DNA of 64,000 bases, taken from NCBI GenBank assembly GCA_964410125.1, contig CAYPGQ010000014.1:938-64937 (forward strand), in the 5' to 3' direction. Of the stretch, positions 7,168 to 33,587 are shown in pieces; the stretch's first letter is position 1, and each line of letters opens with the position of its first letter. Under the pieces are notes generated by a model, which searched no databases, had not been told where the DNA came from, and saw nothing but the letters and a program-made list of their open reading frames with translations. Both the position numbers and the translations under genes were made by a program. This DNA is from an uncultured Eubacteriales bacterium (GTDB lineage Bacteria > Acidobacteriota > Aminicenantia > Aminicenantales > Aminicenantaceae).

Positions 7168-7318
7168 CTGCCAAAAAGCGAGAAAAATTCCATCGCATGT
7201 TGGAGTCATACCAGATGGCTAGGACCACGGACATCTGCATGAAGGTAGAAGGGCAATTGAGATGTTGCTGAACTGGATGATAAATGTTCCGGTTTTACAA
7301 TGGTTACCGTGATCTGGT

Positions 7319-8683: not shown

Positions 8684-8723
8684 AAAAATCTCCTTTATTT
8701 AATGTACATTCCCTATTTTAATC

Positions 8724-8818: not shown

Positions 8819-9484
8819 GAAATAAATATTCCCCATATCAACTTTACAAAAGAGTTTATCCGGGATTCCATCGGTTTATAATTTATTCCCATTACAGTGT
8901 TCTGTAAATTAGAGGGATTTATTCGCATATTTGGAACTAACGAATCGCTATTCAGTCTAATATTCCACGTCAAATCTTCATGTGCGGAATATCTTCCCTG
9001 CGGTAGGGAAATTTTCCTCACTTCATCCTCCCGTTGAATACCGTAATCCATTGTTATCATTAAGATTATCTATGTGGTATGAAGATTGCTAATTAGTATA
9101 TGAACAGACGTCTGTCTTTATAAGTCTTTGAAAGAAGTAGAAAAATTTAATGGATAAGTAAGGAGGTCAACATGAAGAACCAACATAAGAAGACTTGAGA
9201 ATATTAAGAGAAGTGTGTGATCCTGATGGATATTTCCTTGCTAGGAAACTTAAATAATTAATATCAACTTGGGAAAATTATATCAAATGAGGAAAGTGCG
9301 CTGTTCAAAAAAGTTCAGGGAGTACCCTAAAGTTCATATAGGAGCACTGAAACGAAACCATAAACGTAAAAAGTCAAATTTTATGTGTTTTGGTATGTCA
9401 TTATCTCTGGTTTTTTCCTGCCAATCCTCTCTGGAAATGGATAATCGCTGAAAGGAAAGGAGATACGGCCAGCCTTTTTAAAAC

Positions 9485-11473
9485 TCAACTGCCGAACAGT
9501 GAGAAAAATTCCATTGCATGTTGGAGCCATGCCAGCCATTTTGTCGTCCATTTGATAGGGGCTAGTTTGTTTGGCTTCACAAGATAGCTGTTGTTTGTCC
9601 GGTTTATATCTGCGACTAGTTTGAATTTAGGGTCGACGACAGCTGACTTAACTTTAGAGGACGTTTCATAAGTATATTTTTTCCATCGGTATCGACCATC
9701 CCATATTTCTTTTATCTCAAGACCATCCTCAAACCTGATGAGCACGTCCACAGGGATTTGGACTTCGCCAAGACGCCGGACCAACACTTCGGATTGATAA
9801 AGATCTGTCGGAGGTGCACTCTTTTCACCTTCTATAAATTCATCATTAAACCAGCCCCGCTGTCGTCTTTCTTTTCTGTTCGTGATGTTTCCCAGGGCAT
9901 AATCCAGCTTTCCCGATCCATAGATAAATTGGTCTAAAAACCAGCACATATCCTGTCCGGCAAATTCAGCCACAGTCGCATAAAAATCTTTGGGCCGTGG
10001 ATGTTTGAACCAGTTGCGCTTGGAGTAGTCCTTGATCATCTCGGCAAAAACCTCTTTTCCCATGTATCTTTTCAAGCTCCTCAACATCAGTTCTGCCTTG
10101 GCGTAGGAATTGGCCCCATAGCTGTTTCTGTCCATGAAATTCCAGGTGAAATTCTGCATATTATCAATATTATAGGTTCTCCGATGACGGGAGATTCCGC
10201 TCGATTCGATCGGCATAGAGACGCCTTTGAATACAAAAGGTATGTTGAAATAGGAACGGGAATAAAGAGTACGGCCATAGGCTTCATAATAAACTTCAGA
10301 ATCTAGAAAGGAGGTGAATCCTTCGTCCATCCAGGCATCTTCGAATTCGTTGGTTGCCACCAATCCGAAGAAATAGCCGTGCCCAAACTCATGAATGGTC
10401 ACTCCTTCGGGACGGGATATCCCCTTGCGGCTGAGAAAATATGTTCCTCCTGTGAAAAGAGTCGGGTATTCCATCCCACCGGAACGGCTGTTATAGGCCG
10501 GATCGACGCAGGTGACTGAGGTATAGGGGTAATCGCCGTACCATTGGCTGCAGTACTTAACGGCATTTTTCACTGCATTCATGTATCTGTCCTTGAGATT
10601 TTTGTGGTATGGCTGGAGAAGGATCGTGATCTCTGTGTATTTTCCGGGAGCAAATTCGAAATCCTCGATATATTCCAAGTAATCAGGGCTGGCCGTCCAG
10701 GCAAAGTCATGGACACTGTGCTGGAAAAAATGGTGGGTCGTCGTGCCATCCCTGTTATCGATTTTATCACGGTGTTCTCCGGTAGCACCGATGATATAGG
10801 AGGAAGGAAGAGTAATCCGGACATCATAGGTTCCGAAATCAGCGAAAAAATTTGTCGTGGCGTGGAACTGGTGGCAATTCCAATTTCCCTCATAAAATAC
10901 ACCGATTTTGGGAAACCACTGGGCAATAAAATAATAATCCTTATGTCCGCCTGTCCGGTGAATCGGCCGCGGCACTTTGGAGTGGAAGATGATTTCCAAA
11001 TCGATGGTTTGGCCAGGCTCTATGGGTTTGGGAAGCTCCACAGAAAAAACAGTCTGATCAAGCATGTTATCATCGTCGGGATGGCGGAATAGCATAGTGG
11101 GCATGAGGTTGGCCTCTGGGAAACTCTCATTTCCGACGATTTTTATGGCCTCCACTCGGCAGTAACCCCAATCTTCCTTTTTGTTTTGGCGGACAATTCT
11201 CCCCCATCTCTGTGTCCCTTCCTGTAAAAAATCACTCATGTTATTCTGGAATCCGTTCCAGTAGAGGTGAAACCAGAGTTCATCTGTGGGCATCTTTGAT
11301 GTGTTTGTCCAGGACAATAGTTCTGTGCAGTCTATTGTTTTTACTGTCGTGTCGAGCTCAACATTCATTGAGTAGGATGCGATTTGATCACAGAACGGTT
11401 CTTGCTGAGAAAATAGGGGAGAGGTGATACAAAGAAAAAAAAGTGAACAAACGAATAATGCTGATCTACTCAA
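9485..11473 (-). CDS. M1-family zinc metallopeptidase (aminopeptidase N-like), secreted
   Basis: It has HEFGHGYF (HExxH) followed by WMDEGFTSF. The likely start is a TTG after a GGAGGA SD, which gives a signal peptide. Confidence 0.8.
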   Translation of the reverse strand: MSRSALFVCSLFFLCITSPLFSQQEPFCDQIASYSMNVELDTTVKTIDCTELLSWTNTSKMPTDELWFHLYWNGFQNNMSDFLQEGTQRWGRIVRQNKKEDWGYCRVEAIKIVGNESFPEANLMPTMLFRHPDDDNMLDQTVFSVELPKPIEPGQTIDLEIIFHSKVPRPIHRTGGHKDYYFIAQWFPKIGVFYEGNWNCHQFHATTNFFADFGTYDVRITLPSSYIIGATGEHRDKIDNRDGTTTHHFFQHSVHDFAWTASPDYLEYIEDFEFAPGKYTEITILLQPYHKNLKDRYMNAVKNAVKYCSQWYGDYPYTSVTCVDPAYNSRSGGMEYPTLFTGGTYFLSRKGISRPEGVTIHEFGHGYFFGLVATNEFEDAWMDEGFTSFLDSEVYYEAYGRTLYSRSYFNIPFVFKGVSMPIESSGISRHRRTYNIDNMQNFTWNFMDRNSYGANSYAKAELMLRSLKRYMGKEVFAEMIKDYSKRNWFKHPRPKDFYATVAEFAGQDMCWFLDQFIYGSGKLDYALGNITNRKERRQRGWFNDEFIEGEKSAPPTDLYQSEVLVRRLGEVQIPVDVLIRFEDGLEIKEIWDGRYRWKKYTYETSSKVKSAVVDPKFKLVADINRTNNSYLVKPNKLAPIKWTTKWLAWLQHAMEFFSLFGS

Positions 11474-11591
11474 TAGAATATCCTCCAAATAACGGATGCC
11501 CTATTATAAAATAAATTTAAAAAAAGAAAAATCCATTTTATTGGGCCCATTATTGATTTACGAATCGAGCTATGCTATAAGCTAGCATGAA

Positions 11592-12059
11592 ATGCATTAC
11601 AAAACATATTACAACTCACCGATAGGAATACTAGAAATTAGGGGGACAGAACAGGGAATATCCGGGGTCCATTTTGTGGAGAACAAGAGTGATCCCGATC
11701 CTGCCATTCCATTACCATTAAAGGAATGTGTTCAACAGCTAAATGAGTATTTTACGGGAGATCGAAAGGAATTTTCACTAACATTACTATTAGAGGGAAC
11801 GAACTTCCAGAAAAAAGCGTGGAATCAGCTTATAAAAATTCCTTATGGAAAAACAGCTTCTTACAAAGATATTGCTGTAGCCATCAAGAATAAAAAAGCT
11901 TTCCGTGCGGTGGGTAGCGCCAACGGAAGGAATAATATCGCTATCATCATCCCTTGTCACCGCATTATTGCTCACGATGGGACACTGGGGGGATACGGAG
12001 GGGGATTGTGGAAAAAGGAATGGTTGTTGGATCATGAGCAAAAAAACAGGGGATTTTAG
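11592..12059 (+). CDS. ogt: Methylated-DNA--protein-cysteine methyltransferase
   Basis: It has the active-site IPCHRII motif and a C-terminal GGLxxKxWLL motif. Confidence 0.85.
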   Translation: MHYKTYYNSPIGILEIRGTEQGISGVHFVENKSDPDPAIPLPLKECVQQLNEYFTGDRKEFSLTLLLEGTNFQKKAWNQLIKIPYGKTASYKDIAVAIKNKKAFRAVGSANGRNNIAIIIPCHRIIAHDGTLGGYGGGLWKKEWLLDHEQKNRGF

Positions 12060-16099: not shown

Positions 16100-16882
16100 T
16101 TGATAATTGCCATAACGAATCAAAAAGGAGGAGTTGGAAAAACAACAACTACATTGAATATATCTGCTGCCTTGGCTTTTATGGGAAAAAGCACGCTATT
16201 GGTTGACACTGACCCCCAAGGACACAGCACTATATCTTGTGTGATGGATCCTCTTTCTATGACAAAATCACTATATGATGTATTGATAAAAAGCGAAGAG
16301 AAAATTGAAAACATAATAATGAAATCTACTATTCCAGGTCTCGATGTTGCAATATCCAAAATAGCGATGGCCAAATTGGAACCTTCTTTGTTGGGGGAGA
16401 TCGATGGGCATTATAGGCTAAAAGATACCTTAGAGGGCGTGAAAAAAAAGTACGATTTCATTCTGATCGACACGCCGCCAACATTAGGATTGATTACGCT
16501 GAATTCTCTGGTCGCTGCAGATAAAATATTAATACCTGTTCAGGCATCTTATCTTTCTCTCGAGGGGACGGATGATCTCCTGGAAACGATAGAAAAGGTT
16601 AAAAAAGTCACAAATCCCACACTTGAGATAATTGGAGTGGCTATCACAATGCATGACAAGAGAACTAACATTTCAAAAGATTCTGTCGATAGAATAAAAA
16701 AAGTTTTTGGGCGCAAGGTTTTTCGAACAATTATATCCAAGAGTGTAAAGCTTGAGGAAAGCCCTGCATACAAAGAATCCATTTTTACATTTGCACCATA
16801 TTCTGTAGGTGCAAAACAATACAAAGAACTTTCTGAGGAGATAATCAGACGTGCAAAAGTCAAAAAAAACCGGACTTCCTGA
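16100..16882 (+). CDS. parA: ParA/Soj-family partition ATPase
   Basis: It has the deviant Walker A KGGVGKTT. The probable start is an in-frame TTG at 16100; the upstream part of the ORF looks non-coding. Confidence 0.85.
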   Translation: MIIAITNQKGGVGKTTTTLNISAALAFMGKSTLLVDTDPQGHSTISCVMDPLSMTKSLYDVLIKSEEKIENIIMKSTIPGLDVAISKIAMAKLEPSLLGEIDGHYRLKDTLEGVKKKYDFILIDTPPTLGLITLNSLVAADKILIPVQASYLSLEGTDDLLETIEKVKKVTNPTLEIIGVAITMHDKRTNISKDSVDRIKKVFGRKVFRTIISKSVKLEESPAYKESIFTFAPYSVGAKQYKELSEEIIRRAKVKKNRTS

Positions 16883-17693
16883 TTCGGTAAAAATGAGGCA
16901 TGATACTCACTTTGTGGAGCTAATAACATCTCGGCCTACTGGGCCAAGGGTTCGGATGATTTATATTGATTCAATAGATCCAAATCCCAGGCAAGCACGG
17001 AATGAATTAGGAAATATAGATGAATTAATGTTGTCTATAAAGGAAAGAGGCGTTTTAGAACCAATTCTTGTAAGACCTAAAGCTGGAAGATATGAGATAA
17101 TAGCCGGTGAAAGACGGTATGTGGCATCAAAAAGGGCGGGATTGAAGGAAATGCCCTGTATAGAGATGATAGTGGAAGATAACGAGGCTATGGAAATCGC
17201 TCTTATTGAAAATTTACAGAGAAAAGATCTGGATGTTTTTGAAGAAGCAGATGGATTGAAGGCTTTAGCAGATGTTTATGGATATAATCACGGAGAAATC
17301 GCAAAAAAAATAGGAAAAGCAAGATCTACAATCACAGAGATTATAAATATCTGCAGAATCCCAAAAGAAATAAGAATATTCTGCATCAAAAATAGTATTG
17401 CTAGCCGTAGCACTCTAATTGAAATAGCCAAACAAAAAAATGTTGAGAACATGAAAAGGCTTGTATCGATGATTAAGAGACGAGAGCTGAGCCGCGAAGA
17501 TACACGAGATCTATCGAAAGACCTAAAAGGAATACAGAGAAAACAAAAATACTTTGTTTATAATTTTAAGCCTAAAGAAAAAGATTCATATAGACTTAGA
17601 ATAGAATTTAAGCAAGAAACAGTTAGCAAGGAAGAAATAATTAGAATACTTAATGAAGTGATCAAAAAATTAAAAATTAAAGAAATTGATTGA
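16851..17693 (+). CDS. parB: ParB/Spo0J-family partition protein
   Basis: It has a ParB box (GERRYVASKRAGL) and an HTH (IAKKIGKARSTITEIINI). The GTG start lies behind a GAGGAG SD and overlaps the parA end. Confidence 0.8.
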   Translation: MQKSKKTGLPDSVKMRHDTHFVELITSRPTGPRVRMIYIDSIDPNPRQARNELGNIDELMLSIKERGVLEPILVRPKAGRYEIIAGERRYVASKRAGLKEMPCIEMIVEDNEAMEIALIENLQRKDLDVFEEADGLKALADVYGYNHGEIAKKIGKARSTITEIINICRIPKEIRIFCIKNSIASRSTLIEIAKQKNVENMKRLVSMIKRRELSREDTRDLSKDLKGIQRKQKYFVYNFKPKEKDSYRLRIEFKQETVSKEEIIRILNEVIKKLKIKEID

Positions 17694-17948
17694 ATTGAAT
17701 ATTTACATATCATAATAGTTTACATAATATACCTTATGCGACACAATATTATCCCCGAGTATAAGTAGCTGATAACAAACAAGATGGGGATTTCCTCAGG
17801 CTGTGGATATCTTCTCTGCCCATATTTTGTGCATTTGTGGGAGATGGAAATACAAATCTTTAGCTTTGAATTAATTCATAAATTTTTGTAAACTCTTTAT
17901 TGGTTAGATTGTTTCTATATAGGGAATCAATGAAATTAGGAGATTGCA

Positions 17949-19241
17949 ATGCCGGATAACGTACTAGAAAAATGTAAAATCTCTAACTTGTGGCACCAAA
18001 AAAATGTGGAGATAGAATTTAATGATAATGTAAATTTTCTTATTGGGCCTAATGGTTCAGGAAAAACAACTTTAATTAATTTAATAGTTGCAGCATTATC
18101 TGCTGATCTAAAAGCTTTACTACTTGTCCCCTTTAATAAAATTGAATTAACTCTAAAGGCTATTTCAAAAAGAATAAAGCCAATTATTGAAGTTGAAAAG
18201 AAAGTTGATAAAAAAGGTGGCTCTATTCAAATAATGTTTAAATTACGTGAAACCACTACTGGGCCAGTTGATTTATACGTACTTGAAGATGTTGATGATA
18301 TGCTTAGATATTATTCAGTAAGAAGACGGAGAAGACTTCCACCTGACCAAATACCTGGTACTCAGTCACTTAAGGAAAAATTTGATTCAATTTTTAATTT
18401 ATCGTGGTTATCTATTCATCGCGCGAGATCATTTAGGCGCCTAGAAGATGAAGATTCATATGATTCTACTGTAGATAGTAAATTAGCAGACCTATCAAAT
18501 GAATTTGTGAGATTTTTTTCATCTTTATCTCAACAATCATCTAACGAATTAACCAAGTTTCAAGAATCAGTTTTTGTTTCTATGTTTATGACAAAAGAAA
18601 AATCTTGGTTTGCTGCTTCCTATCAAAAAATGAATCTTGAATCAGAAAAAAATGCACTAATTGAAATATTTAAGGAGTTGAATGTAGGGCCTGACAAATA
18701 CCTAAAAAAAGTTGAAAGTCATTTCTCCAGCTTGAAAAAAGCAATCCGGAATATAGAGAGTAAAGATAAAATAACAGTTACTCCTGATGAATTTGCTACT
18801 TTTGTAACAAATGTAAGGGTGGATTATGTTGTTAGAGAATGGAATAAGTTAAGGAAAAAGCAAGAGGAGATTTTTGAACCAAAAGAGACTTTTCTAATGG
18901 TCTTGAATAGTCTGGTTAGAGATAAGAAGTTTTATATTAATGCAAAAAATGAATTAACAGTTGAATTAGATGACAGTGTTCCATTAGCTCTACATAGGTT
19001 ATCTTCTGGTGAGAAACAGATGATTATAATACTAGGAGAGGCGCTTTTGCAATACCAGTCTCCCTCTATATATATAGCAGATGAACCTGAATTATCTCTC
19101 CACATAGAATGGCAACAATCATTAATTGATAATATTAGAAGCATTAATCCATCTTCACAAATTATTTTTGCAACTCATTCCCCTGATATTGTTGGGAAAT
19201 ACAGTTCAAATGTCATTGATGTAGAGGAAATAATCAAATGA
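17949..19241 (+). CDS. ABC/SMC-type ATPase, AriA-like (PARIS/AbiL-type)
   Basis: It has Walker A GPNGSGKTT, signature LSSGEKQ, Walker B IYIADEPELSLH and H-loop ATHSPD. There is a helical insertion between the ATPase lobes. Confidence 0.6.
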   Translation: MPDNVLEKCKISNLWHQKNVEIEFNDNVNFLIGPNGSGKTTLINLIVAALSADLKALLLVPFNKIELTLKAISKRIKPIIEVEKKVDKKGGSIQIMFKLRETTTGPVDLYVLEDVDDMLRYYSVRRRRRLPPDQIPGTQSLKEKFDSIFNLSWLSIHRARSFRRLEDEDSYDSTVDSKLADLSNEFVRFFSSLSQQSSNELTKFQESVFVSMFMTKEKSWFAASYQKMNLESEKNALIEIFKELNVGPDKYLKKVESHFSSLKKAIRNIESKDKITVTPDEFATFVTNVRVDYVVREWNKLRKKQEEIFEPKETFLMVLNSLVRDKKFYINAKNELTVELDDSVPLALHRLSSGEKQMIIILGEALLQYQSPSIYIADEPELSLHIEWQQSLIDNIRSINPSSQIIFATHSPDIVGKYSSNVIDVEEIIK

Positions 19242-20149
19242 CATTCACAAGAACTGATGCAGGGTTATCAAATCAGCATCTTTTTCATAAGGTTGATTAT
19301 GTAGTTTTCGTTGAAGGAAGCGAAAAAGAACTATCGTTTCAAGAAGTATGTCAAGGGTATTCAGGAATTGCTTCATTCGACATTCTTTATTGGCAAGCTA
19401 TTTTTAACAAGTTTGTCAGCAAAAAAAAAGTTAAGTTTAAACCCGTTGGTTCGAAAAGTATTCTGAGAGTTATAGCAAAAAAAGTTGAATTAGGTGAAAT
19501 AAATCATGTTTGGGTAGCAATGGACCAAAATACAGATCGCTTTAGAAATGAATATATTCAAAGTAACGGGGTATTTTATACTTGGGGATATAGTTGGGAA
19601 AATGACGTTTTACAATTACAAGTTTTAATTGATCTTTTCTTTGTGCTTTGTCCGATAGAAAGAGCTGAAAATGAGAAAGATGTCTCTGATGTTATTAGCC
19701 AATTATATTATGACTTCATTCACAAAATCCGTCATTTTGTGCATGTTGATATGTTGTTGTTGACAAAAGGTAAGAGCCTTTTTCCTAGAAGAAATTATAA
19801 AAGGCTAATTAAATGCAATCCTGCGCATACAATTCCACCTGAACTAAAAATCAGTGAATTAAAAAGACTTCTATCAGAATGTAATAAACAATTTTCGAAT
19901 TTAAAGCCCTTTTTCTTTAATGATAAATATAAACCTAATACAATAAGATATTGTTTTGGACATTTACTGTGCATTTACTGTTATCGAGCTCTAATGTATG
20001 CGTTAAAGAAATTTGCACAGATGCCATATATTGCATTAGATTATATGACCTCCATGGCAACTAGATTGTTTGGTGACTCGCTTGATTCGACCTTAAGTGA
20101 AGAAATTTTTGAGCATCACACGAAGCAATTTGAGTTTATTAATTCTTAG
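19238..20149 (+). CDS. DUF4435/TOPRIM-like protein, AriB-like
   Basis: Its start overlaps the ATPase stop in an ATGA. It has an N-terminal VVFVEGSEKE motif (TOPRIM-type Glu in a VEG context) and later KPVGSK and VAMDQNTD. Confidence 0.45.
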   Translation: MTFTRTDAGLSNQHLFHKVDYVVFVEGSEKELSFQEVCQGYSGIASFDILYWQAIFNKFVSKKKVKFKPVGSKSILRVIAKKVELGEINHVWVAMDQNTDRFRNEYIQSNGVFYTWGYSWENDVLQLQVLIDLFFVLCPIERAENEKDVSDVISQLYYDFIHKIRHFVHVDMLLLTKGKSLFPRRNYKRLIKCNPAHTIPPELKISELKRLLSECNKQFSNLKPFFFNDKYKPNTIRYCFGHLLCIYCYRALMYALKKFAQMPYIALDYMTSMATRLFGDSLDSTLSEEIFEHHTKQFEFINS

Positions 20150-20432
20150 GTGATTATCTAATTTCAACTCATTACAACATGGCTTTCTACTACGTTTCTT
20201 CAAGTAATAAATAAGAGTTCATTTTTTATTGGCTCCTTCTTATATTAAATGTGAAAATTTCTTCAACCTCCCCTATTGATAGGATTTTAGCTGGACTTCC
20301 CCCAATCTATTGGACACATCGAAAAGTTCGACTTAATATCAGAATTGGAGGTGTCAAGAGGCGTGTAGTTTTACGCAGTAAATCGGCGTATACATTTACA
20401 CACCCTGAGGGTCTTGTATTAAGATCCATTGC

Positions 20433-21111
20433 TTAGCTTTTCTCCTTTTTTGATCCATGAATCATCTCATTAAAGTCTTTCAGCCGGTAACTTTGCCCAT
20501 CGATATTTAAGATATGGGCGGTAGAGCTCGCAAAACTGGTTCGAAAAATGGGGGTCATATCCCAAAAGCTTGGATCCTCTTCCTTATACTCTGTCCAAAG
20601 GAGCTGGCGGGTCACCCCTTTTTTCCTCAGCTCTTGGTGGACGAGCGCCCAATCCGGAGTCCTCTTGCCAGCCTCCTTCAAAACCGATGGAAAAAGACGC
20701 TTTTCCAACTCCTCATCCCCGAGTCCTTCAGGAAGAGGCCAACCGATTCCAGCCTCCGACGCTCTGCACAAATACTCCCGTACCGTCTCCTTCCCGACGG
20801 AACAGGCTCTGGCAATGGCCCGGATGGATAGACCACCCGAGTGTTTCAATCTGAGTACTTCTCGAATTTTTCGCATGGATAACCTCTTTCTGGCCATCTT
20901 TTCCTCCTCTTTTTTTTGGAAGGTACATGATGGCCTATTCGTTTTAAGTTATCCAGCACCGCTTCACTTGATATCGATTCCGGAGTCCGGAAAAAAGTGG
21001 CCGGAATCAACCGGAACAGGTGGCCGGATTGCTCCGGAATCAGTGGCCGTAATGAATCGGAATGGGTGGCCGTAATGAATCGGAATGGGTGGCCGCTTTC
21101 GACCGGAATAT
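20433..21111 (-). mobile_element. IS21-family remnant: istA N-terminus fused in frame to istB C-terminus, plus terminal 23-bp periodic repeats
   Basis: In the 154-aa ORF (20433..20897), the IstA-type HTH region runs into an IstB-type tail (AHILNIDGQSYRLKD). Upstream lie five GTGGCCG-cored repeats. Confidence 0.65.
20997..21111. repeat. Five direct repeats with exact 23-bp period (GTGGCCG core at 20997, 21020, 21043, 21066, 21089)
   Basis: I read these directly from the sequence. The two central units are identical (gtggccgtaatgaatcggaatgg). They are typical multi-site IS21 termini. Confidence 0.8.
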
Positions 21112-21284
21112 GCAACGATATATCTTGAGAAAGTTTCAGCACAATCAAAGAGCCCACTGAAGTCGTTAAGTACTAGTTCAGCCTTGGAATCAATATAAAA
21201 AGGCAAATTTAAACTTCTATTTTTGTTCATCTGAAATACTCCTGAGATATGAATTAGAAAAAGTCATATGTAAAATAGGTATCA

Positions 21285-24182
21285 CTAACTATTAAATATT
21301 ATTCGATATTTCGCAACACGATTATCTATTGCTGGTTTGGTTCCCTCAAGAACGTCAACAATTTTTTTACATATATTAGGATTTTCTAAAGCTCCAGATA
21401 TATAGTCTAAATTGTAGTTTCCTTCTTTATCAAGTGATGCATAGATCACTTGTTCAGCATCACAAACTACTGCAAGGTTTGGGTTATGAGTAACTATAAT
21501 AATTTGACGTTTCTTTTTTGCTTCTTTGATACAATCAACTAATAGTTGATATACAGTTTGATTATCCAGATTCCCTTCAGGTTGATCAATAATTAAAGGA
21601 AGCATACTGTTATCAATTAATAAATAAAATATCAAGAGCAGTGTACCTCTTTCCCCAGGTGATAACTGCTCCAGAGGCTTGCCTTCCCATCGTAATACAT
21701 ATCTTGGTTCTAAATAATCCAATCCATAAATAAACAGATATAAATCACCAGGTGAAAAGGTTTGACGAACTTGATCTTTGATGAGTACAGGCGGATTTTC
21801 ATCATAACGATAATCATGATGAAGGTATTCGATCACTTTATTAATAAATTCTTCTACTCCTAAATCTTCATCTAAATTTGCTGCTGCAACTAAATGATTT
21901 ATTGTTTGTTTCCCTTCTGATTCACCATGAAAAGAACCTCGTCGCTGTTGATTTATAAATTCTAAAAATCTATCACTGAACTTACGTGGGACCAATGAGA
22001 CACGAAATTCTAATCCAAAGCGTTCTTTTGCTAAAGGATGTTTATCTATGAATTCTTGAATAGGAGCGTAAAGTTCTTCATATACCCTTAGTAATGTTTT
22101 TTTTACTTGAAAGATTCTTTTCGCACATTCTTGCTGTTTCTTTTTAGCTGTTGATAGTTTTTCTGGAATTCTTTCTATCTCGTCTTGAAGCGCTTTGTAA
22201 TGTTCTAATGTTTTTGGAGTATTTACGTTGCCAATCAAATTTTTTAATTGTTCTTCCCATTTTGCTTTTATTGCTAAATATCTTTGGTATTCTTTATTTG
22301 GACGATCAAGCTTTTCCCGCAATATATCAATCTTGTTTTTTATTTTTTTTCTTTGGAAAATTAAACTCTGATCGTTATCTTCATCTTTTAGTTGTATATC
22401 GAGATTATCTTTTTTCGCATGTAAATTTTTTTCAATCTTTTTTAGCTTAGATAGATCAATATTTACTTGGATTAAATCATTTTTTGAGATTCCTAATTTC
22501 TCACAATCAGTAGAAATTTCTTCGAAAAGATTATCAACCTGCAATTTAAAGTTTCCAATTTTTCTGTATATTTTTTCAATCAGACGAATACTCAAGACAT
22601 CCCTGTTTAGTTCATCCTGTTTTTTCTTAATATCTTTATCTACATCAACAATTTGAGATGCATATTCTTCAATTTTGTTTGAAATATCATCGATTTCTTT
22701 TTTCCTTTTTGGATCTGTTTCTGGTTTTTTTACCTCAACTGGCATTATGCTTTTATGAGCATCAATCTCTTTTTCTATATCCCTAAGTTCTGATTTAAGC
22801 GAGTCAATATAAATATCTGTAGATTTTTCCTCAAGTTTTACCACCTCAAGTGTTTCCCTTCTTAAATCTTCAATTATTTGTCGAATTTTTGCTTGTGATT
22901 CTGTTGTCCGGAATTCGACAAGTTCATCAAGCGAAGCTTTTCCGAGTCGTTCTTCTGTCGGTATACGTGAAAATATTACCTGCTTTAGTTCCTCATGAAA
23001 TCTTCCCTCTTGTCCTCCCTTTAGCTCATCACAAATATCCTCTAAATAGAATTGAGGAATGTATCGTACAGATTCGGTTAAAGTCGAATCGAAACGATCA
23101 TCAAGATTTCTCCTTATTGTTTCACCACTTTTCCAAGTAAGTTCAGCATCAAAGTGGGAGGATTTGTTTGCTCTAGGATGTCGAAATTGATCTTCATGTA
23201 GGAATGAAAAAGATTCTTCATGTGGGCAATTCCCCATTAATCCAATAACATCAGAGAGTGCGCTTTTTCCATTTCCTTTATTTCCAATGATAGATATTAG
23301 CCCAAAATTGAATTCTAATGAAACTCCATCAAACCAATCTTCTCCAAGAGATGAAGAGCTTCTCTTTTTTATTTTTAAAGAATCAATGTATTTAGTTTTA
23401 TTTTTTTCAACATGATCAAGAATCTGAGGTCGTTCACCAAGAAAAACTCTCTCGATAGGCTCATTAACAACTTGTCTCAGACCATAAAACGTCGCGTCTG
23501 CTTTCAACCAACAAGGTAACGATACTCCATAATCATTAACATTGTGGTTATCAGATCCAATAATTATAGGAAGGTTTAATCCCGTTGCTGGGAAGACAAT
23601 TTTTATGTACCTCTCAATGTCTTTCAACTGTCCTATCTCAAGAAAATCAATAAACATTTTTGTTATATCGAACTTAATCCTCTGTTGAAATTGTTCTCTA
23701 TTCTCAATTCCCTCAACTGAATTAGATTTTCCTCCAGCATGAATTGAAATTAGCCCTCCTAATCCAGATATTATCTTGTGTGCATCTGAAATGGGAACAT
23801 AAACACTTTCATTCCCTCCTCTTGCTTTAATACCTTCAGGAGTTAGTTTCAAGGCGCCTTTAAGTGTATCCCATATATGATCTAAATCCATTGATTCAGA
23901 GAATAATCCAATATAGTGAATTGGCTTATCTCCAAGTTCAGAACGAAGTTCAATTCCAGGAATTACACAAAATTTCCCTTTGCTTAATTTTCGTATATTT
24001 TTAATTCTTTTAACATCTATAAAATGATGATCTGTGATTCCCACAACTTTGACACCTGCATCAATCAGTACATCTGTAATTTGTTCATCTGACACAGTAT
24101 CATTTTCATAATCGAAAGATGAAGGAGTGTGAAAATGTAAATCCCATTTTCGCCATATTGATCCTAGTGAAAATTCTTCCAT
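21285..24182 (-). CDS. PHP-domain + ABC/SMC-like ATPase with long coiled coil (Ppl/PplA-like)
   Basis: N-terminal PHP motifs are DLHFHTPSS, GITDHH and GSDNHN. It has Walker A GNKGNGKS and a coiled coil of about 350 aa that is K/E-rich. The C-terminus carries LSPGERG, Walker B LIIDQPEGNLD and VTHNPN. Confidence 0.65.
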   Translation of the reverse strand: MEEFSLGSIWRKWDLHFHTPSSFDYENDTVSDEQITDVLIDAGVKVVGITDHHFIDVKRIKNIRKLSKGKFCVIPGIELRSELGDKPIHYIGLFSESMDLDHIWDTLKGALKLTPEGIKARGGNESVYVPISDAHKIISGLGGLISIHAGGKSNSVEGIENREQFQQRIKFDITKMFIDFLEIGQLKDIERYIKIVFPATGLNLPIIIGSDNHNVNDYGVSLPCWLKADATFYGLRQVVNEPIERVFLGERPQILDHVEKNKTKYIDSLKIKKRSSSSLGEDWFDGVSLEFNFGLISIIGNKGNGKSALSDVIGLMGNCPHEESFSFLHEDQFRHPRANKSSHFDAELTWKSGETIRRNLDDRFDSTLTESVRYIPQFYLEDICDELKGGQEGRFHEELKQVIFSRIPTEERLGKASLDELVEFRTTESQAKIRQIIEDLRRETLEVVKLEEKSTDIYIDSLKSELRDIEKEIDAHKSIMPVEVKKPETDPKRKKEIDDISNKIEEYASQIVDVDKDIKKKQDELNRDVLSIRLIEKIYRKIGNFKLQVDNLFEEISTDCEKLGISKNDLIQVNIDLSKLKKIEKNLHAKKDNLDIQLKDEDNDQSLIFQRKKIKNKIDILREKLDRPNKEYQRYLAIKAKWEEQLKNLIGNVNTPKTLEHYKALQDEIERIPEKLSTAKKKQQECAKRIFQVKKTLLRVYEELYAPIQEFIDKHPLAKERFGLEFRVSLVPRKFSDRFLEFINQQRRGSFHGESEGKQTINHLVAAANLDEDLGVEEFINKVIEYLHHDYRYDENPPVLIKDQVRQTFSPGDLYLFIYGLDYLEPRYVLRWEGKPLEQLSPGERGTLLLIFYLLIDNSMLPLIIDQPEGNLDNQTVYQLLVDCIKEAKKKRQIIIVTHNPNLAVVCDAEQVIYASLDKEGNYNLDYISGALENPNICKKIVDVLEGTKPAIDNRVAKYRIIFNS

Positions 24183-24221
24183 TTTGTACTCCTCAATTCA
24201 ATGTTCAAGAATTTTTTTTTA

Positions 24222-24416
24222 TTACTTAGATTTATAAAATAAATTGTGCTGATCGTTAAAAAGGTAAAATCTGATGGGCTTAGTTTGTATTCCAACATCA
24301 CACTCCTCCCCTTTCTTTTTGCTTTTAAGCTCATTGGAGTTATATGAATTATGTAATTTTCCAATTGTATAATCTTGAGAGGCTGACCACGAGAATTCGT
24401 TTTTAAACTCTTTCAT
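24222..24416 (-). CDS. Possible small ORF (64 aa) between two large genes
   Basis: This is an ORF only. There is no SD and no recognisable motif. Confidence 0.15.
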   Translation of the reverse strand: MKEFKNEFSWSASQDYTIGKLHNSYNSNELKSKKKGEECDVGIQTKPIRFYLFNDQHNLFYKSK

Positions 24417-24464
24417 TTCAACTACTTATATAATATTGAAAAAGTAGCCCCCCTCCCCTATTCA

Positions 24465-26315
24465 TTATCTCGTCAGCACTTTGACAATTCTATCCTCATT
24501 CAGGAGTCCATTTCTCATAAGAAGTCGAACTGGAAATTCTTTGATTGTAGAATTTTTGAATCCTTCTAGAATTTTCATCAATCCTCTCGAGGTAAGCAGG
24601 GAAAGATTCAGCTCATAATCGTATTCACACGCTGCGATGAAGTCGTCCGAGAACTCATTTGCCACAATTATTGCTTTTGTCACATGAAAATTTTTATTCT
24701 CACAAAGATTCACATAGGATTTCAGTTGTCTCGATACGGAGGTGTATTGGTTATATTCTTTATCCTTTTTTGTTTTGCATTCGACCAACATGAGATCTTG
24801 ATTTCCAAGATTGATTAATACATCAATTTTATGGCGATTAGTATTGAGGCTATTTTTCAATTTGTTGTCTGTATTGAATCCAAGTCTATTGAATATCTTT
24901 TGTGTGACTTTTTCATACAACAGCCCCAATTCGATCTCTTTGACAAACAGCCCCTTATCATGCAACGTTTTTAAGTCTCTTCGTCCGATCGCATCGAAAT
25001 TTTCGATATAAAGATCATCGATGTCCCTATAGTTTTCGATGATATTTTTAATCAAATTTCCTCTGGATTTAATGTTGTGACCTTTACAAAATTTTAGAAG
25101 TTCATCCCGGATAAAAAGATAGAGAATGTCTCTAGGCTTGATGTTATATTTGTTCAGCAATTCAGAAGACATCACGTTTTCATCTTGAAGCTCGAATTCT
25201 TCTTTTATTTTGTTGTTGATAATTGGGAAGGTGCCTGCCAGATCTTTTAAAAGGCTGTTAAAGCCATCACGGGAAAGGCTAATCGTGTCTTCTTTTTCAA
25301 GGTCATTGAAGTATTTAATCAAATTCGCGACTTTTTCTTCTAGAGAACGTCCGAACTTTTCAATATCGACTTCAAGCCCTTTCTCCATGAGTGCCTGAAG
25401 TCTTTTAGACTTTTCGGTTTTGGATGTTCCTGGCCGGAATATAATTTCTGTAAGCAAATTTGTCGCATTAACTCCTTGATTTAAGATCTCCTGAATCTTC
25501 CTTTTCCTGCTCCATTTTCTATTGATATTATGTTTTTTCGTTATGAGGTTGATCTCAGGATCGCTTAGGTTTTTCAGAATCCGCCTTAAAAATTTATTGG
25601 GAAGCTCTATTCCAGCTATTTCTCTTAATAACCAAATAAACTCATCAGGAACGTATAAAGTGTTTGTTTTTCTATTGAAAAAGATGATTCCGGATTCTTT
25701 CAATTCATTCAACAAATCATCAACCTTAAATTTTTCTAAAGGGATTACAGTATGGGAAATCCACCTGACCTCTTCGTTGGATAATTCTAGATTTTTTTCC
25801 AGAGTTTGAAGAATGGATTTTTCTTCCCAGGATAGCTGTTTTTCCATATTTCGGATGAGATCGTTTTCATAAGCAGTCTGCACACAGTTTTTATAAATTC
25901 GGTAATCTCTTTTTCGGTTTTCCTCTAAATCTCCGTCCCCAATATCTAGAAGGCGCTTGAAATATTTAATGTTTGCTTCTAGTTTTGTATGCTCATTGTT
26001 ATAGAGTTTTAGGAACCATTCCCTTGTCATCATCGAGTTTCCGTCCCTTATCAGAATATCCACAAGAATGTCGAGTTGGTAATCACTGAATTTTATTCTT
26101 TCTTGAAGATGTTTTTTATATTGGGGCGTAAGAAGTTCGAAGAGTTGAACAATGTTTTCATCATCCACATTTTTCAGCTGTCCATCCCCTTTAGATAATA
26201 TTTTATCGATTTTGGGCTTTGATTTTCTTAGGTCACAACAAAAGCTGTCAAGAATTTTTAAAAATGCGCTCTTCTCGATCTGATTGACCGTGTCAAGAAC
26301 ATCGATAAGTCTCAT
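24465..26315 (-). CDS. Protein with SAP/HeH-like repeats and C-terminal Mrr-type PD-(D/E)xK nuclease domain
   Basis: The C-terminus reads HKIDVLINLGNQDLMLVECKTKK (D...ExK), then QLKSY and IIVANEFSDDF. It has its own TTGACA-17-TAATAA promoter (26349..26377) and an AAGGAGG SD. Confidence 0.55.
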   Translation of the reverse strand: MRLIDVLDTVNQIEKSAFLKILDSFCCDLRKSKPKIDKILSKGDGQLKNVDDENIVQLFELLTPQYKKHLQERIKFSDYQLDILVDILIRDGNSMMTREWFLKLYNNEHTKLEANIKYFKRLLDIGDGDLEENRKRDYRIYKNCVQTAYENDLIRNMEKQLSWEEKSILQTLEKNLELSNEEVRWISHTVIPLEKFKVDDLLNELKESGIIFFNRKTNTLYVPDEFIWLLREIAGIELPNKFLRRILKNLSDPEINLITKKHNINRKWSRKRKIQEILNQGVNATNLLTEIIFRPGTSKTEKSKRLQALMEKGLEVDIEKFGRSLEEKVANLIKYFNDLEKEDTISLSRDGFNSLLKDLAGTFPIINNKIKEEFELQDENVMSSELLNKYNIKPRDILYLFIRDELLKFCKGHNIKSRGNLIKNIIENYRDIDDLYIENFDAIGRRDLKTLHDKGLFVKEIELGLLYEKVTQKIFNRLGFNTDNKLKNSLNTNRHKIDVLINLGNQDLMLVECKTKKDKEYNQYTSVSRQLKSYVNLCENKNFHVTKAIIVANEFSDDFIAACEYDYELNLSLLTSRGLMKILEGFKNSTIKEFPVRLLMRNGLLNEDRIVKVLTR

Positions 26316-26596
26316 ATTATCCTCCTTATGCTGACATCAACGTAAATATTATTAGTCGGATAATTTGCAAATGTCAAATTTTACTGAAACAACCTCCCTT
26401 AAAAAAACAAGGCCACATCTTAGGTATTACGCAATTTATAATTTATGTAAATCACCGTTTAAGGTGATTTTGAGGGGGATATTGCATAAATAAAGATATC
26501 TAAGGACCGAAGGCCGTGTCATACCGTTTCTTCGGCAATACATGGGGATAATCTCCTGAGCGAAGTGCAATGTTTTTTCCTATGCGAAGCCCATAT

Positions 26597-29035
26597 TTAA
26601 ATTATTGCTTGGATTTTAATAAACTGCTGGAATTTTTCTATACACTTTTCAATATTGTTTTCTTTTATTTTTTCTACTTCTCTGCACCATTTTATTGCCT
26701 TTTTTTCAAGAGAGAGGTTTTCAATTTCCATCCACCAATTGGGCAATATCACATGTCTTCTCATTTCTAAGGAGTTTTCAACCTTTCCAATATTTGACAC
26801 ATGAATTTGACCTCTTTGAATTCCTTCGAAACTAGAGGCAAAAAATTCGAGGCTCCGAAAACCGTTTAAAGGCAATAAATCATGAAATAGTTGGAGCATG
26901 GGTTTTTGAATTTTGCTAATAGGGCCCCATTTCGAGTTGAGAAGAGAGGTCATTAAATAGACCTGTTCTGTTTTTAGCTTGTCTTCTTGATATCCTTCAA
27001 AAGTTTTATATTCTTTTATGCTGTAAACTTTATTTTTATAAGCATCTCTATCCATATTAATATTTACATTAATTATTTTCTTGACTGCTTTTATTGCATA
27101 ATCCCAGTGGCTGGCTTCGGTCAAATCAAGTTCAATAATCGGACCATTAAGACGAGATACAAAATCAGAACCTTTAGTGATTTTTTTACTTTTATCATCA
27201 GAGGACAGTTCATCCATTCGGCTGGTTGATGCAAAAATCCATACTCCAGGGGTCAAACGGTATGTTTTGCCGTCTTTCATAAATTTTCCATCCCACATAG
27301 GGCTGAGCAGCAGCCCAATAGCACTGTGCCCCTCAATTTCAGCATTAATTTCATCTATGAAAATCAATGTCCTTTTCTGAGTTCTGGCTTGAATCGAGGC
27401 AATAGTTGCTAAACATTCAATGAGGTCTTGATTTTCTGACATTTGTGCAATGGAGAATTCAAGGAATTCCATATCAAAATGATCTGCGAGACATTTTGCT
27501 AAATAGCTTTTCCCCCAACCTGGAGGTGAACTTAAAAGGCAGCTCAAGGAATGTCTAAGTGTTTTTTTGTTATTGAATTTTGCTATTTCAGAAACAAGAT
27601 GATTTATCGCATCACGCTTTGGTCCCCCTACACAAATGTATTTGGCCAGTGTCCCCTCACCCCGCCACAATTGCAAAACCTCTGAGATCGTTCCATTATC
27701 AGACATTAGTTGGATAGCTCCTATGTTTTCAGCCGAGGAATTCCAATCATCCCAGAGTTTTTCGTATTCTTCAATTTCGACTTTCTTATCGGAATGAGTA
27801 GTAATATTTAGTGCTTCTAAAGCTTCAGAATAGTCACCATAAAGATAAAGCTCTTCCTGATTCCATTTCTTGCTGGCTTTTTCACTCCAGTAATGAGCAG
27901 CAAGAAGAGCTTTGTAGCATTCGTCACCGAAATTATTGATAATTTTCCCTCTTTCTTGAGAAAAATCTGCATATAATCTCTGGGCAATAAGAGATCCATA
28001 AAATATTGTAGTTCTTCCTAAATTAATGAGCTGTTTCTCTCCCGGAGGTTGATGAATGCTGTAACACATATTTCTATCTTTAGCGAACACTGTGTTTTTA
28101 TCTAGAAGCACCGCAGCTCTCATGGAATTAATTCCTGATTTATCCCTTTTTGAGCCATGTTTATACGTTGTATCGCAAGTGAGTTCACCTAGAAGCTCCA
28201 AAGCTGCATGACTGAGGTGCTTCCCATGCCACCATCTTCTTTCTCCTTTTTTGTGTTCAGCAAATTTAAAATCTACAACAATCATATCAATTGCCCTTTT
28301 ATTCTGATTTAAAACTTCCAACCAGCCAGGATTATCAATTTTAGTACGCACATACCATTTGATAGCCGGTCTATTTCTGAAGATGCTCAGCAATTTTTTT
28401 ATGGTTTCTTCATTTATCACTCCAGCAGCATGATCTTCAATTACCAATGCAACTACATTAATATCGCTAGATTTGAGTTCTGTCTCTAGCATTTTAAGAT
28501 TTATATTCATAGAGGCGTCCAATACCCAGTCAAAGCGGTAAAGTTGATGTGGTTTTGCGCCTCCATATCCCTCGAAACATCGGATGATTCTATTTGTTGA
28601 TGTATTTGAATCAAGAGAGAGATTTCTCAACTTTACATCATAGGTGCAATTCTTTTTAGAATAGGGACACTTATCTTTTATTACCGGTCTTAGGCTGGTA
28701 AGAGTATACGGAGATAGTAGTTTTTTATCCGTATGATGTGGGCAAAGCGTGCATTTAATTAAATCATCATCAACAGGATTCCAGACGCCATATCCAAGAA
28801 ATTCAAATTGAGTTCCTTCGTTTTTTTTAAAATAAGATCTGAGTATTTCTATGAGTGTAGCTGCACCACATAGATTTGTAATTTTTTGATCCACACTGCT
28901 GTGTCTTGATAGATAATGGATTTCTCCTGGAGAGGAGCTGTGATATAAATCTTGTCTTGTGACAAGCCAATTTTCATCAATAAACCAATCCCCTATTACA
29001 ACCACCGTATCAACTTTTTTATTTTTTTTAGGCAT
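26597..29035 (-). CDS. HldE/PfkB-like (degenerate) domain fused to a classical AAA+ ATPase
   Basis: The N-terminus has VVVIGDWFIDENW, NLCGAATL and VIEDHAAGV, which resemble ribokinase-fold kinases, but the GAGD site is replaced by NLGRTT. The AAA+ part has Walker A PPGWGKSYLAK, Walker B LIFIDEINAE and sensor-1 VWIFASTS. The start is placed at the ATG behind a GAGGGG SD. Confidence 0.5.
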   Translation of the reverse strand: MPKKNKKVDTVVVIGDWFIDENWLVTRQDLYHSSSPGEIHYLSRHSSVDQKITNLCGAATLIEILRSYFKKNEGTQFEFLGYGVWNPVDDDLIKCTLCPHHTDKKLLSPYTLTSLRPVIKDKCPYSKKNCTYDVKLRNLSLDSNTSTNRIIRCFEGYGGAKPHQLYRFDWVLDASMNINLKMLETELKSSDINVVALVIEDHAAGVINEETIKKLLSIFRNRPAIKWYVRTKIDNPGWLEVLNQNKRAIDMIVVDFKFAEHKKGERRWWHGKHLSHAALELLGELTCDTTYKHGSKRDKSGINSMRAAVLLDKNTVFAKDRNMCYSIHQPPGEKQLINLGRTTIFYGSLIAQRLYADFSQERGKIINNFGDECYKALLAAHYWSEKASKKWNQEELYLYGDYSEALEALNITTHSDKKVEIEEYEKLWDDWNSSAENIGAIQLMSDNGTISEVLQLWRGEGTLAKYICVGGPKRDAINHLVSEIAKFNNKKTLRHSLSCLLSSPPGWGKSYLAKCLADHFDMEFLEFSIAQMSENQDLIECLATIASIQARTQKRTLIFIDEINAEIEGHSAIGLLLSPMWDGKFMKDGKTYRLTPGVWIFASTSRMDELSSDDKSKKITKGSDFVSRLNGPIIELDLTEASHWDYAIKAVKKIINVNINMDRDAYKNKVYSIKEYKTFEGYQEDKLKTEQVYLMTSLLNSKWGPISKIQKPMLQLFHDLLPLNGFRSLEFFASSFEGIQRGQIHVSNIGKVENSLEMRRHVILPNWWMEIENLSLEKKAIKWCREVEKIKENNIEKCIEKFQQFIKIQAII

Positions 29036-29260
29036 GTCCCTTTCCCCTCTTGAATAATTTTTCAAAATGAGAGCCTTTTGCTGTATAGCTACTCATCACT
29101 CTTTTTTTGATCGGAAATTATGTCTTTTGCCCTTAAACAGAAACGTCTAATTGGACATTTTTCCCCCTAAAACCGAAAAAATTCAAAGGGTTTAAATTTC
29201 GTCTGTCAGCTTTTGAATATGGTTGGATAAACGGTCTATGTCAAGCAATCCCAGTGAAAT

Positions 29261-32282: not shown

Positions 32283-33446
32283 TCAGGTAGTACGAAAAGC
32301 AACAGAATAGTCCTCGTTTTCGTCATAACCGTACCTTTTTAAGAACGAAGGAATTGCGCTGTAATTCTCACCAACATATTCGGCAAGTTTTCCTTTGGAT
32401 ATTTTCTCAAGAAAAAAAGCTTTAATCGCCAACAAAATGTATTTAGTAGAAAGATATGGTTTTTCTATTTCTGCCCAATCCGTGTTCCGTTGTTTTTTGT
32501 CAATGTCTCTGATGATCCCCTTCTCGAGTTCTTCTTGAATGCCCTCTTTCCTCAGAAGGTCAAGGTTAACCAATCGCCATAGTAAAGCTTCGATCGAAAC
32601 ATCGAAATCTCGAGCAATATCGACCAAATTCAGATATGAAATCGAGTCCTTACCGGTCTTTTTCTCAAACGCATCTCGAACCTCTTTCTCTGGTATAAGT
32701 AAAGATGCTGCAAAGACGTCAGCTAATTGTTCAACGCGGCTTTTTCCTTTTGTATTGTCTTGGTATATCTCTTCAGGATCGAAATCTTCCCAGGTTATTA
32801 AGTGAAAGAATTCGTGCGTGAGGTCGAAATTGCGTCTCCAGGGTGCATCATTAGCGTTAATCAGGACAGCCATTCCAAAATCCTCATCTATTGTCGAGCC
32901 TCCAGAAATGTCATCATCCATCGGAAGAAAAATAATCTTGATACCCATTTCTTCCTCTAAGATTTTTGACAACGAACATGCCGGACGCAATCCCAAATTC
33001 AGAATGCTAGCGTATTTAAAGGCGAGGTTTTCGACACATTTGAAAGCATCCTGGGTAAGCAATTCATGTTTATCAATATTGATTTTTGATCCTGTTTTTG
33101 AAACATCAGGCTCACCGAGAAGTTTTAGGAGATTTTGGTAACGCTCACATATCGAAATGAATTGCCGTTCGATAATTGTTTTTTGAGGGCTTGTTTCTGG
33201 CCTTCTCCAGAGGATCCTGACTTCTTTCTGAGGAACGTCAAGATTCAGGAAATACTCAATGTCACGGCCATAGATTTTAGCTAATTTAGCAAGTTCCCAG
33301 GCTTTTACCTCCCTCTCCCCTGCCTCAATGCTGCTTAATGTCTGGTAATTGTTGAATCCTAATTTTTCTGATACTTCCTTTAGAGTAAAATCCAGAGACT
33401 CCCTTTCTCGCTTAAGAAGATTTGCCAGTTTCTTTTGGATATTCAT
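32283..33446 (-). CDS. XRE-family HTH fused to ImmA/IrrE-type zinc metallopeptidase (copy 1)
   Basis: The HTH is LKEVSEKLGFNNYQTLSSIEAGERE and the HEXXH motif is HEFFH. The start is set at MNIQKK (ATG 33446); the upstream part of the ORF is promoter DNA. Confidence 0.8.
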   Translation of the reverse strand: MNIQKKLANLLKRERESLDFTLKEVSEKLGFNNYQTLSSIEAGEREVKAWELAKLAKIYGRDIEYFLNLDVPQKEVRILWRRPETSPQKTIIERQFISICERYQNLLKLLGEPDVSKTGSKINIDKHELLTQDAFKCVENLAFKYASILNLGLRPACSLSKILEEEMGIKIIFLPMDDDISGGSTIDEDFGMAVLINANDAPWRRNFDLTHEFFHLITWEDFDPEEIYQDNTKGKSRVEQLADVFAASLLIPEKEVRDAFEKKTGKDSISYLNLVDIARDFDVSIEALLWRLVNLDLLRKEGIQEELEKGIIRDIDKKQRNTDWAEIEKPYLSTKYILLAIKAFFLEKISKGKLAEYVGENYSAIPSFLKRYGYDENEDYSVAFRTT

Positions 33447-33540
33447 TTTTGCTACCGAATTAAATATATATGATAATATTATATTTGTCAAATAGAATAT
33501 GATAATAATATAAGATATTATTATTCTACATTTTAAATAA

Positions 33541-33556
33541 GGTTCATCGCAAAAAT
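33541..33556. repeat. Left arm of 16-bp inverted repeat GGTTCATCGCAAAAAT
   Basis: It is the reverse complement of 34224..34239. The two arms bracket the glycine-zipper gene and its promoter. Confidence 0.75.
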
Positions 33557-33587
33557 GAGTGCCTAGCAAGATAAGATTTAGGGGTAA

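Follow-up and report, generated by a model that had tools for sequence, protein, structure and literature searches.

T616 is encoded by a gene of its own in a defence island

The window, a stretch of 64,000 nucleotides of contig CAYPGQ010000014.1 (assembly GCA_964410125.1), carries on its minus strand a complete gene (24465..26315, stop codon included) for a protein of 616 aa, here named T616. The gene probably works on its own, not as the effector of the two large ATPase genes that adjoin it, and its product is probably a nuclease acting on foreign DNA. The open reading frame (ORF) is present in the ORF list with the extent given in a preliminary description of this DNA, and all the peptides quoted there were located in its translation: EKVTQKIFNRLGF (residues 468-480), IDVL (497-500), ECK (512-514), QLKSY (530-534), IIVANEFSDDF (548-558), DELLKFCKGHNIKSRGNLIKNII (404-426) and HNINRKWSRKRKIQEIL (262-278). 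All features of T616 and of its leader described below are on the minus strand.

T616 is flanked by two adjacent, co-oriented ATPase genes: an AAA+ gene upstream (26597..29065, 822 aa) and, downstream, a gene of the TrlF family (21285..24182, 965 aa; NF045780, E 4e-186) with partial similarity to Ppl. The gaps that separate T616 from these neighbours are 282 nt and 283 nt long. The genes at 17949-20149 resemble AriA/AriB of the PARIS system, and T616 lies in a stretch of low G+C content at about 16-44 kb (31-37% vs 42-50%).

The C-terminal domain is a predicted Mrr-type PD-(D/E)xK nuclease

The nuclease domain comprises residues 456-616 (24468..24950) and was delimited from invariant residues, the core of an AlphaFold2 model, Foldseek comparisons and Mrr_cat matches in relatives. 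Residues D498 (24822-24824), E512 (24780-24782), K514 (24774-24776), Q530 (24726-24728) and Y534 (24714-24716) are invariant down to 28% identity in alignments of 24, 22 and 14 sequences; position 468 in the first core helix (E468, 24912-24914) is either E or Q across the family.

The AlphaFold2 model of T616, built from the 24-sequence alignment, had a mean predicted local distance difference test score (pLDDT) of 88 and a predicted template modelling score (pTM) of 0.84, the latter indicating that the packing of the domains is well defined. Residues 460-575 were modelled as an alpha-beta-beta-beta-alpha-beta core, with helices at 460-477 and 524-540 and strands at 499-504, 507-514 and 544-552. 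Since the five invariant residues fall on the expected strands and helix of this confident model, the nuclease motifs of T616 go beyond what chance would produce.

The best Foldseek match was the small subunit of R.BspD6I (2p14; probability 1.0, E 0.036), followed by PspGI, EndoMS/NucS, McrC and further PD-(D/E)xK proteins; the top matches were all of this fold. The BFVD library of viral structures gave PD-(D/E)xK and RPB5-like matches and nothing further. Sequence-profile searches against Protein Data Bank (PDB) chains, made with full-length, N-terminal and C-terminal alignments, yielded chance matches apart from one borderline MCM winged helix (see below).

Pfam Mrr_cat (PF04471) has a gathering cut-off of 21 bits. 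Two divergent, full-length members of the family passed it over the aligned catalytic region (P0136 with 23.9 bits and P0167 with 28.1 bits; P-numbers designate family representative sequences), and T616 itself gave no Mrr_cat match even at E 0.1. Other members of the family showed weak matches to HSDR_N, HSDR_N_2, NucS_C, Hjc, NERD and FokI_C.

By transitive homology, the predicted assignment of T616 to the Mrr-type PD-(D/E)xK nucleases holds, which bears out the preliminary description in this respect. The D/E/K triad, for which a check had been proposed, is supported by the family alignment and by the predicted structure. The D-ExK-QxxxY site appears intact in T616, and the domain is predicted to cleave DNA.

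The N-terminal region has a predicted architecture without structural relative

The first 455 residues (24951..26315) were modelled by AlphaFold2 as an all-helical region in which a single beta hairpin is the sole non-helical element. When modelled separately, this region again gave a confident prediction (pLDDT 87.6). A Foldseek search with this N-terminal model found no neighbour in the PDB (best probability 0.14), and no Pfam or NCBIfam family matched residues 1-455. The predicted architecture of this part of T616 thus appears to be novel.

The hairpin belongs to a putative winged helix-turn-helix of three helices at residues 163-222 (25650..25829), recognized from the secondary structure of the model and from weak profile matches: a borderline one to the archaeal MCM winged helix 2m45 (E 0.09) and weak ones to Pfam MCM_WH_arc. 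Residues E165, L169, L172, S179 and E182 are invariant in this segment.

Two SAP-like motifs, each a helix-extended loop-helix in the model, were found at residues 252-280 (25476..25562; helices 252-261 and 270-280) and 403-429 (25029..25109; helices 403-412 and 421-429). They are the same two segments that had been picked out before from the letters of the sequence. The first follows the pattern LNxIxKKHxI...KIxxIL; in the second, residues F409, C410 and G419 are invariant and Pfam SAP_new25 matches T616 at 402-427 (E 0.072). Both segments show the predicted geometry and the hydrophobic/G/K pattern of a SAP domain (about 35 aa); beyond this, the likeness consists of sub-threshold matches to Pfam SAP (PF02037) and SAP_new25 in 6-8 of 24 homologs (best E 0.003). 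We do not claim the two motifs as true internal repeats: hhalign aligned them in register, but with a probability of 7%.

Pfam scans of T616 and its homologs detected none of the modified-base reader domains SRA, PUA, EVE, YTH and Mrr_N.

T616 defines a small, patchily distributed family under strong purifying selection

A word-indexed search returned 591 homologs. Nearly all are exactly 616 aa long and, with 40-95% identity, can be aligned to T616 free of indels. When 1.84 billion representatives were searched exhaustively with a profile, 336 matches were obtained, among them about 25 full-length clusters (at 50% identity) of 603-635 aa, the remainder being fragments. The family is thus small and has one fixed architecture.

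The labelled hosts include Desulfobacterota, Victivallales, Bacteroidota, Balneolales, Sulfurovum, LCP-89 and Saccharibacteria; the few archaeal labels are on short contigs, which may be mis-binned. Three cultured Pseudoalteromonas strains (P. donghaensis HJ51, Pseudoalteromonas sp. CF6-2 and Pseudoalteromonas sp. HL-AS2) have a copy with 36-37% identity, annotated as "hypothetical protein". Closer to the window the distribution is patchy: the family was found in 2 of 61 relatives and in 2 of 401 genomes of the phylum (0.5%), and it is absent from genomes of the same genus.

Among viral protein families, phrog_34709 (PHROGs v4, of unknown function) matched T616 over its full length (positions 1-612 of 614 in the profile, E 7.6e-120) and the Pseudoalteromonas homolog with 1277 bits, which identifies it, at the level of sequence profiles, as the T616 family. 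No match to T616 was obtained among 50,697 phage genomes of INPHARED, and a search of IMG/VR with the family profile found no relative.

The ratio of nonsynonymous to synonymous substitution rates (dN/dS) between T616 and its relatives was 0.05-0.11 in all three parts of the protein, so that T616 is under strong purifying selection. The copy at locus L001 (L-numbers designate homolog loci) is 93% identical to T616, compared with 75% for ParA and 65% for ParB encoded nearby. A recent transfer of the gene, which this difference might suggest, was rejected: with a dS of 0.35-0.65 and the dN/dS values above, the high identity reflects strong constraint.

A shortened allele was seen in two loci (L031:1639-2205 and L103:3280-3792), in which residues 1-51 are joined to about 484-616 by an in-frame deletion that lies between short NVD(D/E) repeats. 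Lacking the first helix of the nuclease core, it is probably a decayed copy. Fusions of a fragment of the nuclease domain to Calx-beta, DUF2971 or AAA_21 proteins, seen in some representatives (P0230, P0255 and P0259), look like artefacts of gene calling or assembly and not like true architectures. Contigs L005, L011 and L031 share parAB synteny with the window and have nuclease genes 91-92% identical to that of T616, yet they are labelled Eubacteriales, Promethearchaeota and Acidobacteria; the conflict is probably due to mis-binning of metagenome-assembled genomes or to mislabelling.

No partner gene is conserved across the family

For the analysis of gene neighbourhoods, 111 loci with T616 homologs were gathered from genome and metagenome collections; they were sampled by peptide patterns, which favours the better-conserved clades. 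The preliminary description had put T616 forward as a candidate effector that belongs with the AAA+ gene and the TrlF gene, and the co-occurrence check suggested there was run. In tblastn searches of the 111 loci with both ATPases, matches were confined to the genome of the window, with none in about 100 other loci. No NTPase recurs across the family, which is the pattern named beforehand as speaking against such a tie.

Clustering of all the neighbouring ORFs gave no cluster common to several clades. In about 30 loci, 86 immediate neighbours were tallied by Pfam family, and no NTPase or methyltransferase family recurred among them. Immediate neighbours of the homologs in other genomes include components recognized by PADLOC: Type IIG and Type III restriction-modification systems, SIR2, Hhe, GajB, DrmMI and PDC-S37. 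The AAA+, T616 and TrlF genes of the window are independent cassettes stacked in a defence island by parAB, not one machine. A literature search on TrlF and on defence proteins combining SAP and nuclease domains found nothing specific.

The T616 gene probably has its own promoter and travels with a leader

The promoter proposed for T616 was found with 11 of 12 consensus positions and can be read as TTGACA-17-TAATAA or as TTGACA-18-AATAAT (26348..26377 in the latter reading); its position is kept in 12 relatives of the same clade. The Shine-Dalgarno sequence AAGGAGG (26321..26327) is likewise present, 5 nt 5' of the ATG, and is conserved in the leader alignment of the clade. By itself the promoter-like site is weak evidence because such sites show no regional excess (6 found over the whole region, 10 expected). 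In other genomes, however, the homologs are preceded by an unrelated gene, frequently in opposite orientation, so that T616 must carry a promoter of its own. Transcription independent of the AAA+ gene, suggested earlier from the promoter site, is therefore plausible.

Nucleotide homology to the relatives (blastn) begins at 26498 or at 26388, showing that a leader including the promoter (26316..26498) travels with the gene within the clade. The leader is about 240 nt long in the clade and more conserved than synonymous sites; the copy in the window lacks 42 nt by a deletion. The alignment of the clade also revealed a palindrome, AAATCACC-N6-GGTGATTT, at 26449-26470.

Two candidate functions of the leader were rejected. 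A structured RNA was not supported: the leader had no match in Rfam and folded no better than shuffled sequences (z -1.7); it also showed no similarity to the four-copy small-RNA element of the window. A small upstream ORF, considered as a leader peptide or antitoxin gene, overlaps the ATG in relatives, is interrupted, frameshifted or without start codon in several of them, and is deleted in the window.

History of the locus in the clade of the window

In relatives with 84-95% identity the T616 gene likewise lies a few kb from parAB, with differing genes in between; the gene upstream is rho, ImmA or another. The interval between parAB and the T616 gene (16100-29065 in the window; also seen in L001, L005, L011, L043-L045 and L112) is a hotspot whose cargo differs per relative: PARIS, an IS21 remnant and TrlF in the window, Gabija in L001, an AAA_13 ATPase in L112 and further genes in the others. 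An XRE-ImmA/IrrE fusion gene stands directly upstream of the nuclease gene in L040, L046, L052, L098 and L099; in the window such a gene is found at 32283-33569, with the AAA+ gene and beta-propeller genes intervening before T616.

Downstream, a gene for a Cas4-like PDDEXK_1 protein of 279-309 aa follows at a distance of 49 nt in eight loci (L001, L005, L039-L043 and L112), and is missing in loci L044-L047 of the same clade. The window has kept a remnant of it, the first 19 codons or so (24356..24416), to the point at which homology to the relatives ends (24356). The N-terminus of the remnant, MKEFKNEFSWS, matches the 300-309-aa neighbours in L001, L005 and L039-L043. An ORF of 64 aa (24222..24416) begins with this stub; the rest of the Cas4-like gene has been replaced by the TrlF cassette. 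The stub thus indicates that TrlF arrived later.

Locus L052 was found to contain a sharp recombination breakpoint about 70 nt inside the coding sequence (266-1062 vs 1063-2845). Relative to the other loci of the clade, its upstream ImmA gene and leader are 80-93% identical, and its coding sequence just 62-70%. The extreme conservation of the leader that this comparison suggests is therefore apparent and explained by the breakpoint; L052 represents an allele swap at a fixed site.

Other genomic contexts and a recurrent Kv-type channel gene

In the chromids of Pseudoalteromonas the homolog is constant and both flanks vary between strains. Upstream are found either S-adenosylmethionine-dependent methyltransferase and HNH genes or a prophage tail module; downstream are metallophosphoesterase, GTPase, helicase and NERD genes, a histone deacetylase gene, SIR2, ATPase, SLATT and DUF3427 genes, or an esterase gene. 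In L124, a Pseudoalteromonas provirus listed in IMG/VR, the homolog (10001-11845) is located just after a tail module (55-9063; tape measure, baseplate and fibres), near the predicted end of the prophage.

In three loci the gene for a Kv-type channel starts 7-16 nt after the stop codon of the T616 homolog (L010, 11861-12562; L019, 10384-11100; L056, 2390-3091). The channels of these loci combine an arginine ladder in S4 with a pore filter of sequence TTTLGF or TVGYGD. A channel gene is also found downstream in L083 (about 3057-3632) and 108 nt upstream in L023 (4603-5424). The genomes searched (those of L010, L019 and L023) hold just 1-2 such channels each, so that five channel-adjacent cases among about 80 distinct loci are far beyond chance. 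The channel-linked copies form deep branches of the family tree. In L113 a small pore-only protein is encoded two genes upstream of the nuclease homolog.

Proposed function of T616 and alternative explanations

We consider it rather probable that T616 acts autonomously, as a nuclease encoded by one gene and of the kind known from Mrr, Type IV restriction and Shedu, with foreign DNA as its target. The N-terminal module, with its winged helix, two SAP-like motifs and conserved polar surface, would bind or sense DNA, and the trigger may be a mark of non-self, for instance modified bases, free ends or uncommon structures. The compact packing predicted for the protein suggests that the N-terminal part could restrain the nuclease until this trigger is encountered. 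The C-terminal Mrr-type domain would then cut the DNA; cutting of both strands would take two T616 molecules, because each chain has a single active site. A role against foreign DNA is suggested by the promoter of its own, by the lack of any need for the present neighbours and by the way in which the gene persists, rare and accessory, in variable regions of defence or prophage genes.

Several findings weigh against this proposal. T616 itself reaches none of the curated thresholds of Pfam, NCBIfam or PADLOC and has no significant match there; the search of PADLOC-DB 2.0 gave just CARF3 (E 8e-4, with no qualifying stretch) and DruK (E 0.055). The matches to EAD7 and CARF3, being weak, partial and below threshold, were disregarded. 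The Foldseek E-values are weak as well, the best being that for 2p14 and none falling below 0.001. Conservation is unusually uniform over the whole length, the presumed sensor included, which is atypical of the specificity domains of restriction enzymes. In other genomes, many of the genes found next to the homologs have ordinary housekeeping roles, and the operon-like channel neighbour in five loci means that the family is not always solitary.

Among the alternatives, the one that fares best, though we regard it as unlikely, is that T616 is one half of lineage-specific two-gene modules, with the Cas4-like protein as partner in the clade of the window and the Kv-type channel in deep clades, and that the copy in the window is an orphan. 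The short, repeated spacing to the Cas4-like gene in eight loci, the recurrence of the channel in genomes that have so few of them and the deep position of the channel-linked copies all speak for it. However, neither partner is present in about 70 of the roughly 80 distinct loci with usable flank, the Cas4-like gene is missing in four loci of the same clade, and the two partners are unrelated to each other. The copy in the window is moreover intact, with a dN/dS as low as that of the paired copies. A related view, to which we give about the same low weight, is that the ancestral form of the family was a two-gene operon of the nuclease and a Kv-like cation channel, that the N-terminal 455 aa are a new sensor fold, and that solitary copies, including that of the window, are derived and work alone. 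If so, the nuclease-channel operon would link a protein that senses or cuts DNA to a membrane-potential device, a coupling not described before.

Slightly less likely is that T616 is cargo of mobile elements, a prophage moron or selfish cassette that would, for example, exclude competitors or promote recombination at hypervariable sites. The full-length match to phrog_34709, the homolog placed after the tail module in L124, the varying flanks around a constant gene in Pseudoalteromonas and the allele swap in L052 with its breakpoint just inside the coding sequence are in line with this. Against it stand the negative searches of INPHARED and IMG/VR, and neither an integrase nor repeats nor fixed ends of a cassette were observed; in L124 a host gene may simply have been included within the provirus boundary. 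In the clade of the window, the conserved position near parAB, combined with a dS of 0.35-1.7, argues for long vertical residence.

We find it improbable that T616 is a DNA-repair or structure-specific nuclease that serves the host chromosome in a manner analogous to FAN1. The order of its modules (SAP-like, helical, C-terminal PD-(D/E)xK) is that of FAN1 as described for the Pseudomonas aeruginosa protein PaFAN1 (PMC4201288), and both the very strong purifying selection along the whole length and the fixed position near parAB in the clade would suit such a role. A gene present in 0.5% of the genomes of its phylum, missing in genomes of the same genus, decayed in some copies and located in a low-GC island among defence genes does not fit it, and T616 has no Pfam match to VRR_nuc, nor was FAN1 among the top 50 fold matches.

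We give the least credence to a three-gene system in which T616 would serve as nuclease effector together with the AAA+ fusion protein and the PHP-ABC ATPase TrlF. In its favour, the window has the three genes side by side in one orientation, and pairings of an NTPase with a nuclease are common in defence systems. Against it, both ATPase genes are absent from all the other homolog loci, and in relatives at 84-95% identity the gene is preceded by rho, ImmA or others and followed by the Cas4-like gene. The Cas4-like stub makes TrlF a later arrival, and the gaps of 282 nt and 283 nt go together with a promoter belonging to T616.

Treating T616 as a solitary nuclease has several consequences. It removes a false call of a three-gene system. 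It also defines an uncharacterised, compact family, almost always of 603-623 aa, in which a predicted Mrr-type catalytic domain is joined to an N-terminal architecture without structural relative. Since cultured Pseudoalteromonas hosts exist, the function of the family is directly testable. If the N-terminal part reads a mark or a structure of the DNA, modification-dependent nucleases might thereby gain a new module of specificity. The channel gene that recurs beside the family would, if real, be new biology.

Comparison of T616 with known systems

T616 resembles Mrr, the modification-dependent Type IV enzyme (PF04471), in being encoded by a solitary gene with no cognate methyltransferase and in having a putative winged-helix DNA-binding part followed by a C-terminal PD-(D/E)xK domain, which in P0136 and P0167 exceeds the Mrr_cat cut-off. 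It differs in being twice as long, with an N-terminal region of 455 aa that has neither an Mrr_N match nor a structural neighbour. T616 itself has no Mrr_cat match.

The Type IIS enzymes FokI (FokI_C, PF09254) and R.BspD6I (small subunit) similarly combine about 400 aa of helical recognition region of winged-helix type with a cleavage domain of about 160-190 aa. The small subunit of R.BspD6I was the best fold match of T616, and a few homologs have weak or precomputed FokI_C matches, none of them above the cut-off. Unlike FokI, the T616 family has no adjacent methyltransferase in the neighbours examined, and the FokI recognition domain matched the N-terminal model with a probability of just 0.06. 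The N-terminal part of T616 is as conserved as its nuclease, whereas specificity domains evolve fast.

FAN1, including the homolog of P. aeruginosa (PMC4201288), consists of SAP, TPR and VRR_nuc domains. It shares with T616 a SAP-type motif and a helical domain in front of a C-terminal PD-(D/E)xK nuclease. T616 has no VRR_nuc or TPR match and no FAN1 among its fold matches, and it is distributed as an accessory gene. The unannotated phrog_34709, being the same family, adds a viral or proviral occurrence and no function.

Shedu (SduA) is an immune nuclease made of one protein, whose N-terminal sensor domains vary (bioRxiv 10.1101/2023.08.10.552793 and 10.1101/2023.08.10.552762). As a working analogy only, T616 may be compared to it: one polypeptide found in defence islands would unite a sensor and a PD-(D/E)xK nuclease, the latter staying inactive until triggered. 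T616 differs from Shedu in having no DUF4263 match or PADLOC Shedu match and in its one fixed architecture in place of swapped sensors. Set beside these systems, T616 appears, from its sequence and predicted structure, to be a solitary protein that joins a sensor to an Mrr-type nuclease, and no relative is known for its presumed sensor part.

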